From the NCBI GenBank assembly GCA_963664825.1, contig OY761614.1:1184001-1248000 (forward strand): DNA of 64,000 nt, written 5' to 3'. Origin of the DNA: an uncultured Holophaga sp. GTDB lineage: Bacteria > Acidobacteriota > Holophagae > Holophagales > Holophagaceae. A program made the translations under genes and the position numbers. Shown one piece after another: positions 12,533-61,675 of this stretch. The notes beneath the pieces were generated by a model, which worked only from the letters and a program-made list of their open reading frames with translations, was not told the DNA's origin and ran no database searches. Positions within the stretch are counted from its first letter, which is position 1, and each line of letters begins with the position of its first letter.

Positions 12533-13432
12533 CTAGCTCCCCGCGTGGCCCGCGACATGACCTGCCGCCCCGAAGCCGCCCCGGGAGAGGCTTCCCATGG
12601 GCGCTCTCCCCGAGACCCCTGCCCCCCGGGCCGTGAAGGCCTGGCCCGGCAGGGGACCCACCTGGCTGGCCACGGGAGGCCGCCAGGCGCTCCCCCCCAG
12701 GAAGACCATGGAACGCCCGCCGGTGGCGGCGGCTGCCCCCCGGAAGGGCTGGGCATCCTCGGGCCGCATGGGATGGCCCGGATCCTGGAAGCGGAAGCCC
12801 GGCGCCATGGGGCGGAAGCCCTGGCCAGGCCAGAAGCCCATGGCCGAGGGACGACCGAACAGGAAGTGCCAGAGCAGGTAGTCGTCCAGCCAACTGCGAT
12901 GCCCCCAGGAAGCGCCGTGGCGGTATCCGGGATCCTGGCGGCGGATGGCCTCGACCTCGGATTCCAGGCCGTGGCGGCGCGCCAGGACCTGCATCTTCTG
13001 GGCGTCCAGGTAATCGATCACCCACAGGAATTCCCCATTCTCATGGAGATCGCCCTCCTCATCCGGCGCCACGTCCCGGAGCCGTTCGGCCGTGAGTTGT
13101 TTGAGGTAGGCGTTCCCCCGCAGTTTCTCCCGCACCGACACGCCCACCAGGAAGAGGTTCGGCGTGAGGGCCGTGAAGGTGCTGCCCTCCAGGTTCAGAT
13201 CGGCGTGATGCTCGGCCATGAAGGCCTCCGTGGCCGCCCGCACCTGGTTCAGCACCAGTTCCGTGGGGGCCTGGGTCTCGGCCTCCCGCCGCAGGGAATC
13301 CTCCAGCTGACGCTGGCGGGCCTTTTCCGCGGCCTCACGTTGACGGCTGGCTTCGGTGTCACAGCCCGTGATCCCGGCCGAAAGGGTGAGGATGGCCACC
13401 AGGGGAGGCGTCAGTGTCCGGTAGGCGCTCAT
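12533..13432 (-). CDS. Lipoprotein with low-complexity C-terminal SRGGFG tail (YgiB/DUF1190-like partner)
   Basis: Lipobox ITGC; ends [23 protein letters not shown] overlap with queF; ends 1 nt before the GSP-synthase start. Confidence 0.75.
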
Positions 13433-33118: not shown

Positions 33119-34039
33119 TCAGCCCGCGATGAGCCTCACCAAGGGGATCACCGCCAGGCTGCAGATGACGCCGGAGTAGAAGCTGAGGAGGGTGTACTGG
33201 CGACCGCAGTAGCGCTGCACGAAGGGGAGCATCACGTCCATGCTGGTGGCGCCTCCCAGATACACCGGCAGGTAGGGCGACACCCGGGCCGCCAGGGGCG
33301 CGCTGAGGATGGAGAGCAGTTCGCGGAAGACATTGTGGATGAAGGCCAGGAGGGAGAGCAGCACCAGGCCGCGCTCGGCGAGGAGCACGGAGGACAGCGA
33401 GTACCAGCCCATGCCGGAATAGATCAGCATGCCTTCCCGGGCGGAATGCCGGGAGACCAGGCTGAACAGGAGGCCACACCCAAGGCTGGCCAGGATATTC
33501 ACGAAGGGCGCCAGCAGCAGCAAGGGCGGGAGCTGGCGCAGATCCAGGCGATGCAGTTCGGCGCCCAGATCGAATCCGATGAAGAGGAGGAGGGCGCGCA
33601 GGATCCATTCCCCCAGGAGATCCATCGGAATGCGCGCCGCGACGGCCCCGGGAAGGGCCAGGAAGAGGAGGAAGCCCGCCAGGATGCAGCCGCTATTGAG
33701 GGCCACGGCCCCCAACTCATGGCCCTCACCGGTCTCGGCCGAGGCCTCCTCCGCGTGAGGCCCCACACCACGGCCGCGCACCCGGTCGACGAGGAGGAAG
33801 ACGCCGAAGAAGACCGCCACCAGGAACAAGCTCGAGGCGATGGCGGCGAAAAATACGCTGAGGTCCTTGGCGAAGAGGCCCCGATTCAGCGCCAGCTTCA
33901 TGCCCATGACGGCCAGCAGGGCCCACAGCGTTCCACGCCCGAAACCGCGATTGAGGAGGACGGCTCGCTCGGAATCCCGGGCGCACCAGCCCAGAGCGCC
34001 CCCAAGCACCAGCACAGAGAAAAGAATCAAGACGCCCAT
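33119..34039 (-). CDS. LysO (DUF340/YbjE) family exporter
   Basis: Multi-TM; GMGWYSLS, NVFRE, GGATSMDVMLP. Confidence 0.88.
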   Translation of the reverse strand: MGVLILFSVLVLGGALGWCARDSERAVLLNRGFGRGTLWALLAVMGMKLALNRGLFAKDLSVFFAAIASSLFLVAVFFGVFLLVDRVRGRGVGPHAEEASAETGEGHELGAVALNSGCILAGFLLFLALPGAVAARIPMDLLGEWILRALLLFIGFDLGAELHRLDLRQLPPLLLLAPFVNILASLGCGLLFSLVSRHSAREGMLIYSGMGWYSLSSVLLAERGLVLLSLLAFIHNVFRELLSILSAPLAARVSPYLPVYLGGATSMDVMLPFVQRYCGRQYTLLSFYSGVICSLAVIPLVRLIAG

Positions 34040-34051
34040 GGAAGGATCTCT

Positions 34052-34633
34052 TCAGCTCAGACGCATTTTCAGGGCCCGGGCGGCGCGGCCCCGGTGGCTG
34101 AGGCCGTGTTTGATCTCGGTGGCCAGTTCGCCGAAGGTCTGTTCGAACTCGTCGGGGATGAAGATGGGGTCGTAGCCGAAACCATGGATACCCCTGGGTT
34201 CCAGGGCCAGCGTGCCTTCGACTGCGCCGCTCACGGTGAAGGGCTCTCCCTCCAGGGGCGCGAAGGCCAGCACGCAGACGAAGCGGGCCGTGCGGGGGGC
34301 ATCGGCGGGAATCATGGAGAGGAGCTTCCGGTTCTTGGCCGGGTAATCCAGGTCGGCGGCGAAGCGGGCCGAGAGCACGCCGGGACCGCCCCAGAGCGCG
34401 TCCACGCAGAGGCCTGAATCGTCGGCCAGGACGCCCTCCACGGGTTCAAGACCCTGCTGTTTCCACCAATCGAGCGCGTAGGTGACCTTCTGGAGGGCAT
34501 TGTCCTGGAAGAAGGCGCCGTCTTCGGGGATCTCGGGGGCCTCAGGCGGCCAGAGCACGAATTCGATGCCCGGCAGCAGTTCCGAGAGTTCCTGGGCCTT
34601 GTGGGCATTGCGGGAGGCGAGGAGGAGCTTCAT
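34052..34633 (-). CDS. rdgB: Non-canonical purine NTP pyrophosphatase (HAM1)
   Basis: ASRNAHK, NALQK, ADDSGL, PGVLSAR, GFGYDPIF, SHRG.A. Confidence 0.95.
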   Translation of the reverse strand: MKLLLASRNAHKAQELSELLPGIEFVLWPPEAPEIPEDGAFFQDNALQKVTYALDWWKQQGLEPVEGVLADDSGLCVDALWGGPGVLSARFAADLDYPAKNRKLLSMIPADAPRTARFVCVLAFAPLEGEPFTVSGAVEGTLALEPRGIHGFGYDPIFIPDEFEQTFGELATEIKHGLSHRGRAARALKMRLS

Positions 34634-34637
34634 GGCT

Positions 34638-35636
34638 TCAGCATCCCACGACTTCCGTGTACCACGCCCTCGCCCGCTCCGGCGTCAGGTCGCCGTGGAG
34701 GAGGGCCCGGCCATCCCGGAAGAGCATGACGCGCCAGGCCCCGTCCATGCCGGAAAGAGCCAGGCTGCTGAGTTTCCAGGCGTTGCCCGTGCGCGCTTCC
34801 AGGCGCTCCTGAAGGGATGGCAGGTCGAGGTCGCCGGGGGGGTTCACACGGATCTGGACGCCTTCCAGGCCGCAGAGCCGAGAGGCTCGCAGGCTCCAGC
34901 GGGCATCCAGGAATTCGGTAATCTTCTCCGTGCAGAAGCGGCAGCGAGATTTCGGGGGATGGATGAACTGGCGTTCGTTGCGCCAGAAGTCGAAGCGGGC
35001 CAGCTCCGAATGGGGTTCCTTTCCCGTGAGGAGCTTGATGGCCTCTAGGGCGGCCCAGCTCCCCACCACGCCCACGGCGGGCCCCAGCACACCCGCGCTA
35101 TCGCAGGTGTCCACGTCGCCGGATGCGGGCGGCTCCTCCATGAGACAGCGCAGGCAGGGCGTCCGGGGGGGGTGGATGGGCCAGACCATGCCCTCGGCGC
35201 CGAGAGCCCCGGCGTAGATCCAGGGCCTGCCCGTGAGGATCGACACATCGTTGATGAGGTAGCGCGCCTCGAAATTGTCCGTGCCATCCAGGATCAGATC
35301 GAAGCCCGAAAGCAGTTCCCGGGCGTTGCCGCTGGTGAGATCGGCGATGATGGGCCGGATCTCGATTCCCGAATTGGCCTCCCGGAGCCGGGCCGCGGCC
35401 ACCTCGGCCTTGGGCCGCAGCAGATCGCTCTCCCCATAGAGGATCTGGCGCTGGAGGTTGCTCCGCTCCACGAGATCCCGGTCCAGGATCGTCAGATGCC
35501 CCACCCCTGCCCGCACCAGCCAGGGCGCGATGACCGAGCCGGTAGCCCCCAGGCCCACCAGCACCACCCGCGCCTCCCGCAGCCGGGCCTCGGCCTCGGC
35601 GCCAAGAAAGATACGCTGCTTCGCGTATCGGTCCAT
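34638..35636 (-). CDS. ThiF/MoeB family E1-like adenylyltransferase (long form with C-terminal extension)
   Basis: RYAKQ, GLGATG, DRD.VE.SNLQRQ, DGTDNFEAR, CLRC, TCDSAGV, CRFC, F.DGR. Confidence 0.93.
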   Translation of the reverse strand: MDRYAKQRIFLGAEAEARLREARVVLVGLGATGSVIAPWLVRAGVGHLTILDRDLVERSNLQRQILYGESDLLRPKAEVAAARLREANSGIEIRPIIADLTSGNARELLSGFDLILDGTDNFEARYLINDVSILTGRPWIYAGALGAEGMVWPIHPPRTPCLRCLMEEPPASGDVDTCDSAGVLGPAVGVVGSWAALEAIKLLTGKEPHSELARFDFWRNERQFIHPPKSRCRFCTEKITEFLDARWSLRASRLCGLEGVQIRVNPPGDLDLPSLQERLEARTGNAWKLSSLALSGMDGAWRVMLFRDGRALLHGDLTPERARAWYTEVVGC

Positions 35637-35743
35637 CACCGAAGCCCACCCCTTCCCTCGACCCACATGTCCAGAAGGGAGGGCCTCGGCATCGCCGAAG
35701 GCGGCACCGAGACAATGCGCTGTTTCCCGTGCCGGTCCATCAT
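35636..35743 (-). CDS. Array peptide D, MMDRHGKQRIVSVPPSAMPRPSLLDMWVEGRGGLR (35 aa)
   Basis: ATGA overlap upstream; its TGA overlaps the thiF/moeB start (GTGATG). Confidence 0.4.
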   Translation of the reverse strand: MMDRHGKQRIVSVPPSAMPRPSLLDMWVEGRGGLR

Positions 35744-35847
35744 CGAAGCCCGTCCCTTTCCGCGGCCGACCTACCCAAAAGGGAGGGCCTCGGCATCGCC
35801 GGAGGCGATACCGAGAGGATTCGCTGCTTTGCGTGCCGGTCCATCAT
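35740..35847 (-). CDS. Array peptide C, MMDRHAKQRILSVSPPAMPRPSLLGRSAAERDGLR (35 aa)
   Basis: ATGA overlap at both ends. Confidence 0.4.
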   Translation of the reverse strand: MMDRHAKQRILSVSPPAMPRPSLLGRSAAERDGLR

Positions 35848-35951
35848 TGAAGCCCGTCCCTTCCCTCGACCCACATGTCCAAAAGGGAGGGCCTCGGCAT
35901 CGCCGAAGGCGGTACCGAGAGGATACGCTGCTTCGCGTACCGGTCCCTCAT
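35844..35951 (-). CDS. Array peptide B, MRDRYAKQRILSVPPSAMPRPSLLDMWVEGRDGLQ (35 aa)
   Basis: ATGA overlap at both ends. Confidence 0.4.
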   Translation of the reverse strand: MRDRYAKQRILSVPPSAMPRPSLLDMWVEGRDGLQ

Positions 35952-36052
35952 CGAAGCCCACCCCTTCCCTCGACCCACATGTCCAAAAGGGAGGGCCTCG
36001 GCATCGCCGAAGGCGATACCGAGAGGATTCGCTGCTTGGCGTACCGGTCCAT
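35948..36052 (-). CDS. Array peptide A, MDRYAKQRILSVSPSAMPRPSLLDMWVEGRGGLR (34 aa)
   Basis: Hand translation; TAAGCT hexamer 6 nt upstream; stop overlaps the next ATG. Confidence 0.45.
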   Translation of the reverse strand: MDRYAKQRILSVSPSAMPRPSLLDMWVEGRGGLR

Positions 36053-36061
36053 ATCGATAGC

Positions 36062-36481
36062 TTACCTGGGCAAGGGGATCCACCCCCATCCGTGAGCCAG
36101 GATGTTCAGGAAGTTCTGAGCGCCCCGGGAGAACAGCGTGTATTTCACGGACATCTGGATGGTCCGGTCTTCGGGGCCCACCAGTACAAAATTGAAGGGG
36201 CGCTCGGAATTGGCCCACCTCTCGGCGCGCACCTTCCACCGAGCCGCGGCCTTGCCGTCTACGGTGACGATCTCCATGGCCTGTTCTTCGCCCACGGCCT
36301 TCGGTGTCCAGCTGCCCAAGGGCAGCGGCAGCGTAATCACCCAGAGGTCTCCTACCTTGCGGGCATCTGCTTGCAGCGTCTGAGCAGGGTGGCCGCTGAT
36401 ATCGGGAGTCAGGATGTGGTGGCGGCAACCCAGGCAGCAGAGCAAGGTGAGCCCAAGGCCCAGAGACAGCTTCAGTTTCAT
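36062..36481 (-). CDS. Hypothetical lipoprotein
   Basis: MKLKLSLGLGLTLLCCLGC lipoprotein signal. Confidence 0.75.
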   Translation of the reverse strand: MKLKLSLGLGLTLLCCLGCRHHILTPDISGHPAQTLQADARKVGDLWVITLPLPLGSWTPKAVGEEQAMEIVTVDGKAAARWKVRAERWANSERPFNFVLVGPEDRTIQMSVKYTLFSRGAQNFLNILAHGWGWIPLPR

Positions 36482-36501
36482 TCACGCACCTATCGCCCAA
36501 A

Positions 36502-36535
36502 CAAAAGGGGACGAGCGTGAGCCCGTCCCCTTTTG
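36502..36535 (-). terminator. Intrinsic terminator
   Basis: Perfect 12-bp stem CAAAAGGGGACG/CGTCCCCTTTTG with T-rich tail on the minus strand. Confidence 0.75.
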
Positions 36536-36549
36536 GGTTGAAGGGAAGC

Positions 36550-37029
36550 CTAGGACTGGACGGGAGCGGGAGCGGCAGTGCCCTGCTCGGCCATGGCCTT
36601 CTCGTACTCGGCCTGGAGACGGCTGGCGTCGGAGACGGCGAACTTATAGACATACTCGAAGCGGTCCGTACCCTTGGTGAGGCCGATGATCACTTCGAAA
36701 ACGCCCTCGGCGTTCACTTCGAAGGGGCTGGCGATGACGTTGAAGGTGCCTTCCTTGGCGCCGTCGGGGATCTGCACATCGCTATCGCGGATGATGTCCT
36801 TGCGCTCGCCATTGGGACTCACAATGGAGAAGCTGAACTTGAACTGGCCGTCCATGCGGCTGAAGCGGGTGTAGAAGCACACCTTGGGGAGGACGAAGGG
36901 GATCTGGGGCACAACGATGTGATGGTCATAGATGCCCATGAGGGAAGTCTTACCCCCCATTTCCTGCCGGATATCGTCGCAGAGCAGGGTGAACTCGTGC
37001 TTGGGGGCTTTGATCTGAACTTCCTGCAT
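36550..37029 (-). CDS. Conserved hypothetical protein (DUF6941-like)
   Basis: LLCDDIRQE.GGK.SLMGIY motif; GGAG SD; strong codon bias. Confidence 0.75.
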   Translation of the reverse strand: MQEVQIKAPKHEFTLLCDDIRQEMGGKTSLMGIYDHHIVVPQIPFVLPKVCFYTRFSRMDGQFKFSFSIVSPNGERKDIIRDSDVQIPDGAKEGTFNVIASPFEVNAEGVFEVIIGLTKGTDRFEYVYKFAVSDASRLQAEYEKAMAEQGTAAPAPVQS

Positions 37030-59893: not shown

Positions 59894-61675
59894 CTAGACG
59901 GGACGGGTGAGATCGGAGGCTCGACGGATGCCCGTCTCCAAGTCCGAGACCGCTTCGCTGAGGGCCGAAAGGCGCGCGCTCTTCTCATTCAGGTTGCCCT
60001 CGAGCTCCCGCTTTTCCATCTCGAGGGAGGCGATGCGCTCCCGCTGGGCGTCGATGCCGGCGTTGAGGCGATTGAGGTGGGCCTCCCGCTCGTCGATGCC
60101 CTGCATCAATTCCATCTGGAGCTTCTCGTGCTCACTGACGGCCCGGGCCATCGCCTGCTGGGATTCCGAGAGCCTGGATTCCAGGTCCCGACGAAGCTCC
60201 CGGAGTTCGGAGGCTTCGGTCGTGGTGGCCTGGAGCAGGGATTCCTTTTCGAGGAGCGTGGCATCGAGTTCCAGGCAGCGGGATTCCTGCTCCGTGAGGC
60301 GGGTCTGCAGGGCTTCGCATTCCCGGGTGAGGCCTCCCAGGCGGCCGCCCTGATCGGCGAGCTCCCGGCGCTGGCCCCGGAGGGTGGCCTCCAGGCCCGC
60401 GATATCGACCTTCAGGGCATCGCCCTCCTTGGTCCGCTCGGCCAGTTCGACATTCCGAGCCTCCAGTTGGTTCTGGAGTTCCTGGAGCCGGGCTTCATAG
60501 CCATTGACCTGGCCTTCCAGATCCCGAAGCTTCTCGTCGACCCCCTGGCTGGCCTCCTCGTGTTCCCGCAGACGCCCAACCTCTTCCTCGAATTCAGCGC
60601 AGCGGCGTTCGGCGGCATCCTTGGCTTCGGCAAGTTCGGCGAGCTGGCCCTGGGAGGCAGCCTTGGCCTCCTCCAATTCGGTGGCCCTGGTCTCGGCGGA
60701 AGTCTTGGCGGCCTCGAGTTCGGTGCAATGCCGTTCGGAGGTGGCCCGGGATTCTTCGAGTTCAAGGGCCTGGCGCTCCTGCGCCTCGATCCGGCCGCGG
60801 AGCTCCTCCCGCTCCTTCTCGGCGTCTTCCAGCGCCTCCTGGAAGTGAACCGTCTGGTGTTCGGCCTCGGAGGCGCGGCTTTCCTGGGAGAGCAGGGCCT
60901 CCTCCGTGTCCTTGAGCTTCTGTTGGAGTTCGCCGAGTTCGCCCTGGCGGCGCTCGGCTTCATCCAGATTGCAGGTGACCCTCTGATGATCGGAACGGAG
61001 GCTATCGAGTTCCTGGTCCCTCTTGGCCAGGAGTCCCTCCTGGTCCTGGAGCTTGGTCTCCAGATCCCTCACCCTGGCCTCCAGCAGCTCGACCTTGCCG
61101 GCATCCCTGGGGGGAAGCGCCGAAGGCAGGGGAATGGCGATGACTGGCCGGGAGGGAGCCAGGGGCGCCGTACTGCGCAGAGGAGGCGGGAACGGAGAAA
61201 TGGATTCTTCGTCGGTCTCCAACTCGGTCTTGAGGCTCTCCAGCCATTCTTCCCCCAGATCGGCGCCGGAGAGATCCCCCAACGGATTATCCGGATCCAC
61301 CCCCCGCAGGGGCACCAGGGGCGTCAATTCGGCCACCAGGGAGGTGGAGTCCATGGGCTTGTGCAGGTAGAGATCGGCCTTCCCCTTGAGGCTCCGATGG
61401 CGGTTGTATTCCTCCTCGGTGGCCTTGGCGCTGATGAGGACGACCTTGACGGCGGCCAGGAGCGGATTCTTCCGGATGGCAGAGCAGAGGGCGTAGCCCT
61501 TGTTCTCGGAGACTTCCACGCAAATCAGCACCGCGGCGTAATGGCCGCTCTCCAGGCGCTGAGGAACCCCATCGGTGCTGAAGCAGAAATCGACTTCGAA
61601 GACGGATTCCAGGGCGACCTGGTGATCCTGGATGAATCTCCTGTCGCTATCCACGAAGAGGAGGCGTTGGGCCAT
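59894..61675 (-). CDS. Pseudo-receiver domain + Pro-rich linker + long coiled coil (FrzS-like)
   Basis: Receiver fold with LLFVDSD and KP but Cys at the phospho-Asp position; HRSLKGKADLY; about 400 aa of heptad repeats. Confidence 0.85.
   Translation of the reverse strand: MAQRLLFVDSDRRFIQDHQVALESVFEVDFCFSTDGVPQRLESGHYAAVLICVEVSENKGYALCSAIRKNPLLAAVKVVLISAKATEEEYNRHRSLKGKADLYLHKPMDSTSLVAELTPLVPLRGVDPDNPLGDLSGADLGEEWLESLKTELETDEESISPFPPPLRSTAPLAPSRPVIAIPLPSALPPRDAGKVELLEARVRDLETKLQDQEGLLAKRDQELDSLRSDHQRVTCNLDEAERRQGELGELQQKLKDTEEALLSQESRASEAEHQTVHFQEALEDAEKEREELRGRIEAQERQALELEESRATSERHCTELEAAKTSAETRATELEEAKAASQGQLAELAEAKDAAERRCAEFEEEVGRLREHEEASQGVDEKLRDLEGQVNGYEARLQELQNQLEARNVELAERTKEGDALKVDIAGLEATLRGQRRELADQGGRLGGLTRECEALQTRLTEQESRCLELDATLLEKESLLQATTTEASELRELRRDLESRLSESQQAMARAVSEHEKLQMELMQGIDEREAHLNRLNAGIDAQRERIASLEMEKRELEGNLNEKSARLSALSEAVSDLETGIRRASDLTRPV

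Follow-up and report, generated by a model that had tools for sequence, protein, structure and literature searches.

We analysed a 64,000-nucleotide stretch of the genome of an uncultured Holophaga sp. (contig OY761614.1 of assembly GCA_963664825.1, positions 1,184,001 to 1,248,000; hereafter the window), focusing on a tandem repeat at the start of a ThiF/MoeB-family gene. The adenylyltransferase gene is live and intact (34638..35639, minus strand; PF00899, E 1e-71), and the best NCBIfam match of its product, PRK12475, falls under the family cut-off. Tandem Repeats Finder (TRF) placed the array at 35610-36057, with a period of 104, 4.3 copies, 86% matches, 0% indels and a score of 672. A previous sequence-only reading had described four 104-bp repeats before thiF/moeB, carrying four chained minus-strand open reading frames (ORFs) of 34-35 aa that run into the gene through ATGA/GTGA overlaps, and both the TRF array and the ORF layout bore this out. 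The mini-ORFs lie at 35948..36052 (34 aa), 35844..35951, 35740..35847 and 35636..35743 (35 aa each), all on the minus strand, and the TGA of the fourth overlaps the GTG/ATG of thiF; their start/stop junctions read, in order, CGATGA, CAATGATG, CGATGATG and then CGGTGATG into thiF. Each peptide was also said to restate the first nine residues of the enzyme. The restatement stood, at eight thiF-like residues (DRYAKQRI, plus Met) and not nine, the next L/V codon after Ile8 being already insert sequence; two of the four units read DRH instead of DRY. The -10-like hexamer TAAGCT (36059..36064, minus strand) precedes the first ATG, the original thiF start, by 6 nt, as had been noted, and its TAA doubles as the stop codon of an upstream lipoprotein-like ORF (36062..36481, minus strand; 139 aa, without family match). 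Genes resembling rdgB (Ham1) and lysO follow downstream (33119..34633, minus strand).

The array resolved into a displaced gene start and four cassettes, all read on the minus strand. With respect to the hexamer, the displaced original thiF start, from Met to Ile8 (36027..36052), is placed where relatives with an empty site (e.g. L005) have their live start. Cassette 1 (35923..36026, left boundary uncertain by 2-3 nt) consists of a hairpin, a spacer and a replacement start (ATG AGG GAC...), and is followed by cassette 2 (35819..35922), cassette 3 (35715..35818), whose spacer is the most diverged of the four, and cassette 4 (35611..35714), which provides the live thiF start. The insertion point is codon 8-9, and the cassettes are identical to one another at 82-96 of 104 positions. 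The hairpin copies lie at 35995..36024, 35891..35920, 35787..35816 and 35683..35712; the first has a 12-bp stem and a 3-nt loop and folds as DNA with z of -4.5 and -3.4 on the two strands, and the fourth is the most decayed. The family consensus hairpin carries one bulged base that all four window copies lack, and this common loss suggests a single ancestral cassette that may then have been amplified, with exchange between units. A tentative second stem in the cassette 1 spacer (35956..35996, minus strand) would pair a purine-rich, Shine-Dalgarno (SD)-like tract; RNA prediction gave such a stem in all four units, and as DNA it was no better than shuffles (z -1.0, -1.7). Rfam gave no match over the array, its three weak matches all falling at 36212-36540.

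An assembly artefact was ruled out, as contigs of three other public runs matched the array without a differing letter. Overlapping contig pieces (X3) covered 35644-35887, 35858-35911, 35882-35981 and 35986-36609, and contigs of runs X4 and X5 covered the array in part; none of these independent pieces bridges all four units.

When the thiF units were compared with the rest of the genome (G000) by BLAST, only the hairpin part recurred elsewhere. A profile search and a structure-based hairpin scan extended this to 14 loci, 12 clear and 2 weak (etfA and peptidase S13), at which the local gene end is present on both sides of the hairpin in diverged copies. The prediction that the non-thiF part of a selfish element would turn up at other gene starts, each time with that gene's own end, was thus confirmed. 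Affected 5' ends were those of thiF, polA, manC, purE, uppS (two units) and two MacB-type permeases, and affected 3' ends those of adenosine deaminase, a response regulator, motA, rpsT, a gene at 1360223, etfA and peptidase S13, with the 3'-end cassettes lying antisense to their target gene. Periods were 101-107 bp, except for 67 and about 110. Pfam assigned names to 12/12 submitted target proteins, and 1/50 hairpin candidates passed in a reversed-genome control run at a lower repeat threshold. These results show that the thiF array is not a thiF-specific device. Two extra hairpins of this genome, at G000:C1:2267313 and 1649363, are flanked by short repeats with periods of about 118 and 72 and fit the consensus partially.

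The best account of the array, to which we assign a probability of about 0.72, is that it consists of a miniature, non-autonomous gene-end-replacement cassette stacked in four copies. The earlier proposal, insertion near codon 9 of a selfish element that restores the 5' end of the gene, is hereby supported, and is extended to other gene ends. The general layout is a 29-nt covarying hairpin, with the consensus TCTYGGYATCSSC-N3-GSSGATRCGCRAGRC, a spacer of ~45 nt and a copy of the terminus of the target gene. The gene body always lies to one and the same side of the cassette, which sits tens of bases inside the gene end and leaves the gene whole and the old end displaced; spacers are short, target-specific and conserved per target. 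In a set of 26 hand-picked hairpin copies, whose relatedness inflates the result, 7/13 stem pairs varied on both sides and 0/500 shuffles reached the covariation score. Two free stem positions, seen in four variants, were complementary in 112/113 of the exact pattern rows listed (counted by eye). Across 86 junctions, copy-to-copy identity stayed at 0.87-0.99 until five bases short of the hairpin and fell in the last four, save one invariant T, and the crossover was therefore placed in the RTYHT core at which the replacement terminus ends and which has two near-invariant T.

The same arrangement was found across the bacterial family. A hairpin pattern with free stem positions matched 115/132 other family genomes, 0/24 genomes of two sister families in the class, and nothing in a backward control; a narrower pattern matched 85/133 family genomes. 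Among the GTDB matches listed (at least 80 loci), 67 were titled Holophagales, Holophagaceae, Geothrix or Holophaga, the remainder being 11 unspecified Acidobacteria and 2 others, and the hairpin-bearing family is most probably Holophagaceae. A second copy of the 45 bp upstream of the hairpin occurred no more than 300 bp downstream in 75 of the 147 genome hairpins with enough flank (control 0/107) and in 55 of 111 metagenome hairpins (control 0/60), 19 of the 130 metagenome hairpins having been set aside at contig edges. All readable targets among the matches listed were gene termini, with the gene body on one constant side, and a few unduplicated hairpins proved to be diverged gene-end cases under the repeat threshold. 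[quoted passage not shown] These included polA, uppS, rpsT, manC and adenosine deaminase, several at sites matching those of the window genome, and 11/20 carried 2-3 units, 8 of the 20 regions having been picked for their neighbouring matches. The thiF array is among the longer examples, and manC arrays reach 4-5 units (L091, L359).

Cassette length was strongly constrained. Among 130 duplicated hairpins, genomes and metagenomes pooled, 92 had periods of 102-107 bp and 24 of 154-158 bp, the other periods being 68, 170, 178, 214-215 or multiples; insert sizes overall were 67-215 bp. At L028:1500-1760 (G044:C6), the end of a biotin-carrier gene holds four 68-bp units that share an identical hairpin; they have a CRISPR-like look and represent the same element. 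Differing biotin-carrier genes at L031, L316, L387, L400 and L402 share one site (MKM-motif codons), with periods of 154-159 or 170.

We then compared the displaced and live gene ends. Among the matches listed, homology between them ends at the start or stop codon or close to it, even at 95-100% coding identity, except in tandem units, L043 and L124. In 55 elements scored as single, 174/277 differences fell at third codon positions, and the changed codons comprised 145 synonymous versus 84 non-synonymous cases. A dead local duplicate should not show such silent divergence, which would be expected of two ends that had been functional in different lineages. Given this mostly silent divergence and the limit of homology at the start or stop codon, the new end probably came from another lineage.

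At the thiF site, 14/56 orthologues were filled and 42/56 were without a unit, four orthologues having been added as known filled and G011 left out for its long branch. The filled/empty label required 13 changes on the gene-body tree, compared with a shuffled mean of 12.6, and at least 6 of these were forced by strong branches. Filled sites are thus not clustered but scattered like shuffled labels, with filled/empty sister pairs such as G007/G008 and G061/G012, a pattern that would fit repeated gain, repeated precise loss or both. The slot between DUF6941 and thiF (window 36062-36481; L001-L024) is itself variable: it holds the lipoprotein-like gene in G000 and G005, a 3' remnant of that gene alone in G002 and other genes in G007, G008 and G006, and is empty in most genomes compared. 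In genus g5 (L206-L217, L409-L433), runs of CTGACAG-like and CTGAGGA-like heptamers upstream of thiF flank a terminator and a -10-like box.

A mechanism can be proposed from these features. The cassette would come from another strain or species, in which its gene end was the working one, and would locate its target site through homology. A putative enzyme, of HUH/Y1 type by analogy with TnpA-REP, may read the hairpin as folded single-stranded DNA, make the first cassette at a site and fix its length. Extra units might arise by re-insertion or by unequal recombination between direct repeats, and the same recombination could remove cassettes precisely. In this genome thiF is probably leaderless, and the enzyme would now be made by re-initiation along the four overlaps; such coupling would make insertions tolerable, leaving the peptides as by-products. 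More tentatively, and well short of even odds, these may be homology-programmed, cargo-free mini-elements, for which one enzyme would recognise the folded DNA hairpin, cut out about ten helical turns including a gene end and insert them into the corresponding site in a related genome. On the same tentative footing, the carried DNA would set the target, and gene starts and stops would be swapped between species. The 42-bp module of the MITE and the 105- and 157-bp modes correspond to whole helical turns and 67, 170 and 215 do not; helical-turn periodicity as a rule is suggestive only.

One competing explanation needs no foreign DNA: local insertion of the hairpin would create a long staggered target duplication (~75 bp), only terminus-spanning events would survive, and slippage would enlarge the arrays. 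This accounts simply for the fixed length and the terminal position. Among the matches listed, the repeat nearly reaches the hairpin at L043 (126/129 bp) and L124 (74/74); the thiF spacer resembles, by eye, the stop-to-terminator stretch upstream of thiF in G019; and there is precedent at restriction-modification genes, where PMC2853133 describes long target duplications spanning starts and stops. A dead copy, however, should decay at all codon positions, and the differences are mostly silent. Spacers were also unlike the host upstream sequence at 95-100% coding identity among the matches listed (L045, L059, L062, L067, L071, L072, L080), and one spacer type common to interleaved g5 species carries the start MSIDRY, unlike the native ones. 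We therefore regard local duplication as unlikely. Scars of larger integrative elements, islands or prophages whose cargo was deleted after they had brought a replacement gene end, are improbable. Replacement of a gene end with a recoded copy is a known behaviour of such elements, and spacers conserved per target would suit it. Random deletion, however, would not yield 102-107 bp so frequently, and a single hairpin serves dozens of targets. Moreover, apart from an array and MITE copies, hairpins without a near repeat had no partner further downstream within the available flanks (5-6 kb at most), the same flanks held no cargo-bearing version, and viral contigs gave 0 exact hairpin matches.

Two functional readings of the chained ORFs were also weighed. 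A selected translational rheostat, in which the number of units tunes thiF-rdgB-lysO expression through serial re-initiation, would agree with the ATGA/GTGA coupling of all 7 units of genus g1, with the leaderless look of thiF in this genome and with a second stem that may mask the SD-like tract. Against it stand the orthologues without a unit, arrays at antisense 3' ends, where coupling is absent, and the finding that coupling is a property of the whole element family. Because 42/56 orthologous sites are empty and arrays of 2-5 units occur at unrelated genes, a rheostat is not needed to explain the array, and we consider it very improbable, although the units likely affect thiF expression. 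The suggestion that the E1-like enzyme or its partner is the target of the 34-35 aa peptides found no support and is hardly credible. Within the array the thiF-derived codons changed mostly silently (7 synonymous, 2 non-synonymous), which could favour a peptide role, whereas the other 25 codons, derived from the element, showed 3 synonymous versus 11 non-synonymous changes (Fisher P 0.013, small numbers). Since these codons vary non-synonymously, selection on the peptides as proteins is unlikely; in addition, peptide tails are wholly different between lineages, and in two units His replaces the Tyr of the RY motif.

The proposal that the first unit holds the ancestral thiF start was upheld by TANNNT, which lies 5-8 nt before the first start in 19/57 thiF orthologues compared with 3.5% in shuffles, a pattern that a leaderless thiF start at unit 1 would fit. 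A sigma-70 scan of the locus returned 0 promoters and no full promoter with the TAAGCT candidate box. In genus g1, ATGA or GTGA overlaps join 7/7 units; in genus g5, the new ATG follows the stop at a distance of 8-9 nt. The displaced frame stopped within -13..+15 nt of the new start in 54/61 5'-type elements, compared with 43% for shuffled spacers, and five of the six distant stop cases were starts or strands mispicked by the script. In-frame fusion of the displaced start occurred in 1/61 of these elements, compared with 22% with shuffled spacers. Stop-start coupling is thus a family trait, best read as what an insertion needs to be harmless, as would be expected if only translation-preserving insertions persist.

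Several points weigh against the replacement cassette. The evidence for movement is distributional, and the scatter could mostly reflect repeated precise loss of old insertions. The elements are non-independent, coming from a few dozen target families, so that P values overstate the case, and the -4/-1 overlap class alone is barely enriched (31% vs 25% shuffled). Identical units occur in some arrays and mean local amplification, and a Tyr-to-His change absent from the live starts of the orthologues compared is shared by two starts of the thiF array; for these two reasons, not every unit can be a separate import. About half of the hairpins occur in another setting, a TA-flanked MITE. Finally, this genome contains neither PF01797 (TnpA-REP/Y1) nor a reverse transcriptase, and no hairpin was found within about 1.5 kb of PF01797 at 30 loci, incomplete genomes included.

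In this second setting, a TA-flanked element bounded by terminal inverted repeats hosts most hairpins outside gene ends, at 66-70 nt from its end. The element is often 313-315 bp long (range 147-556; L057, L063, L132, L158, L358 and about 80 more loci) and forms several subfamilies whose two ends co-vary. In 20/21 alignable cases, comparison with the opposite arm shows the hairpin as a clean 42-bp insert. At L050, L054, L055, L087, L219, L282 and L297 the hairpin also lies within purine-rich inverted repeats, which we take to resemble those beside GxxExxY genes (compare L228).

Prophages and islands are known to integrate in a gene end and restore it, as e14 does in icd. The cassettes resemble them in the replacement terminus, the displaced fragment and tandem stacking at hot spots, and differ in their ~105-bp size, in the absence of an integrase or cargo within flanks of at most 5-6 kb and in using one hairpin for dozens of targets. 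Repetitive extragenic palindromes (REPs) and bacterial interspersed mosaic elements (BIMEs) are likewise short, dispersed and multi-copy, with a 20-40 bp palindrome bearing a bulge, which the window copies lack. TnpA-REP needs a bulged hairpin and cuts at C|T on both sides, and it has been proposed to excise circles and add units (PMC3333891, PMC8266576); a cut, circle and unit-addition model of this kind would yield the cassette layout. REP clusters are also reiterated in tandem with flanking DNA (PMC3733652). Unlike REPs, which are extragenic, the cassettes lie within coding sequence, with a recoded host gene end and a fixed ~105-bp size. Their hairpin has no GTAG or CGTC at its foot; the bases after gene-end hairpins are C49 T45 C68 C42 of 75 (GGAG on the other strand), and AAAC/GAAC in the MITE class. 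No RAYT (REP-associated tyrosine transposase) gene flanked by the cassette hairpin was found in this genome or at the 30 PF01797 loci, a negative limited by incomplete genomes.

Mycobacterial interspersed repetitive units (MIRUs) are intergenic, with 4-nt direct repeats and small ORFs overlapping their neighbours (PMC3184786). The cassettes are also small, dispersed and often tandem, with small ORFs that overlap adjacent genes family-wide, but they sit inside genes (thiF codon 8-9) and duplicate about 30-125 bp of coding sequence. The earlier label MIRU-like accordingly holds for the small overlapping ORFs and fails for the insertion within coding sequence and the long, diverged repeats in place of 4-nt ones. 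Long target duplications, as outlined in PMC2853133, comprise direct repeats >30 bp, often spanning a start or stop and leaving the gene intact, around restriction-modification cargo. The cassettes likewise have direct repeats >30 bp spanning a start or stop; the difference lies in the restriction-modification insert and variable, near-identical repeats of the former, and in the single hairpin, fixed length, silent divergence and absence of cargo of the latter. Gene-end cassettes have no terminal inverted repeats or short target duplication, both of which the TA-flanked host element has, and they differ from CRISPR in that their spacers are homologous host gene ends, the flanking genes are metabolic and Rfam had no match over the array. 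A Geobacter repeat family with long duplications was not found in passages of PMC2700814, PMC2996986 and PMC3543383, supplements aside, and searches of open-access papers, again without supplements, yielded no description of this element or of such repeats in this family. The array is best explained by an undescribed miniature gene-end-replacing element that resembles REP/BIME and island-type gene repair and is a member of neither.

Candidate enzymes were also surveyed. PF01797 is present in 22/133 family genomes. The window genome encodes one IS110, one small and one UvrC-sized GIY-YIG, three GxxExxY loci and 14 tyrosine-recombinase matches, and the hairpin profile had 0 matches in the inspected flanks of IS110, the small GIY-YIG and GxxExxY. 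Clustering of 2055 ORFs near hairpins gave, in the 70 largest clusters judged by eye, target genes, neighbours and spurious frames only. An integron was rejected, as the integrase at 831k is without a cassette array in the 3.5 kb after it.

These results indicate that a chained upstream ORF can be the footprint of a mobile element, and similar leader peptides need this check before they are read as regulators. An abundant element appears to rewrite translation starts and C-termini of housekeeping genes (polA, uppS, rpsT, purE) throughout a family of bacteria; its length obeys a sharp rule, and filled/empty pairs are numerous. Should an enzyme indeed pair hairpin recognition with homology-set targeting, this would be a new site-directed integration activity, and the cassettes offer a concrete system in which to ask how REP-like hairpins spread.

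Among minor observations, L237 (G000:C1:829982-833455) holds, beside a GxxExxY gene, a small tyrosine recombinase and, after it, a transposase-like gene divided between two frames, presumably IS91-type. The window also contains two weak tandem repeats, at 12776-12821 and 60585-60681, with periods of 21 and 42.

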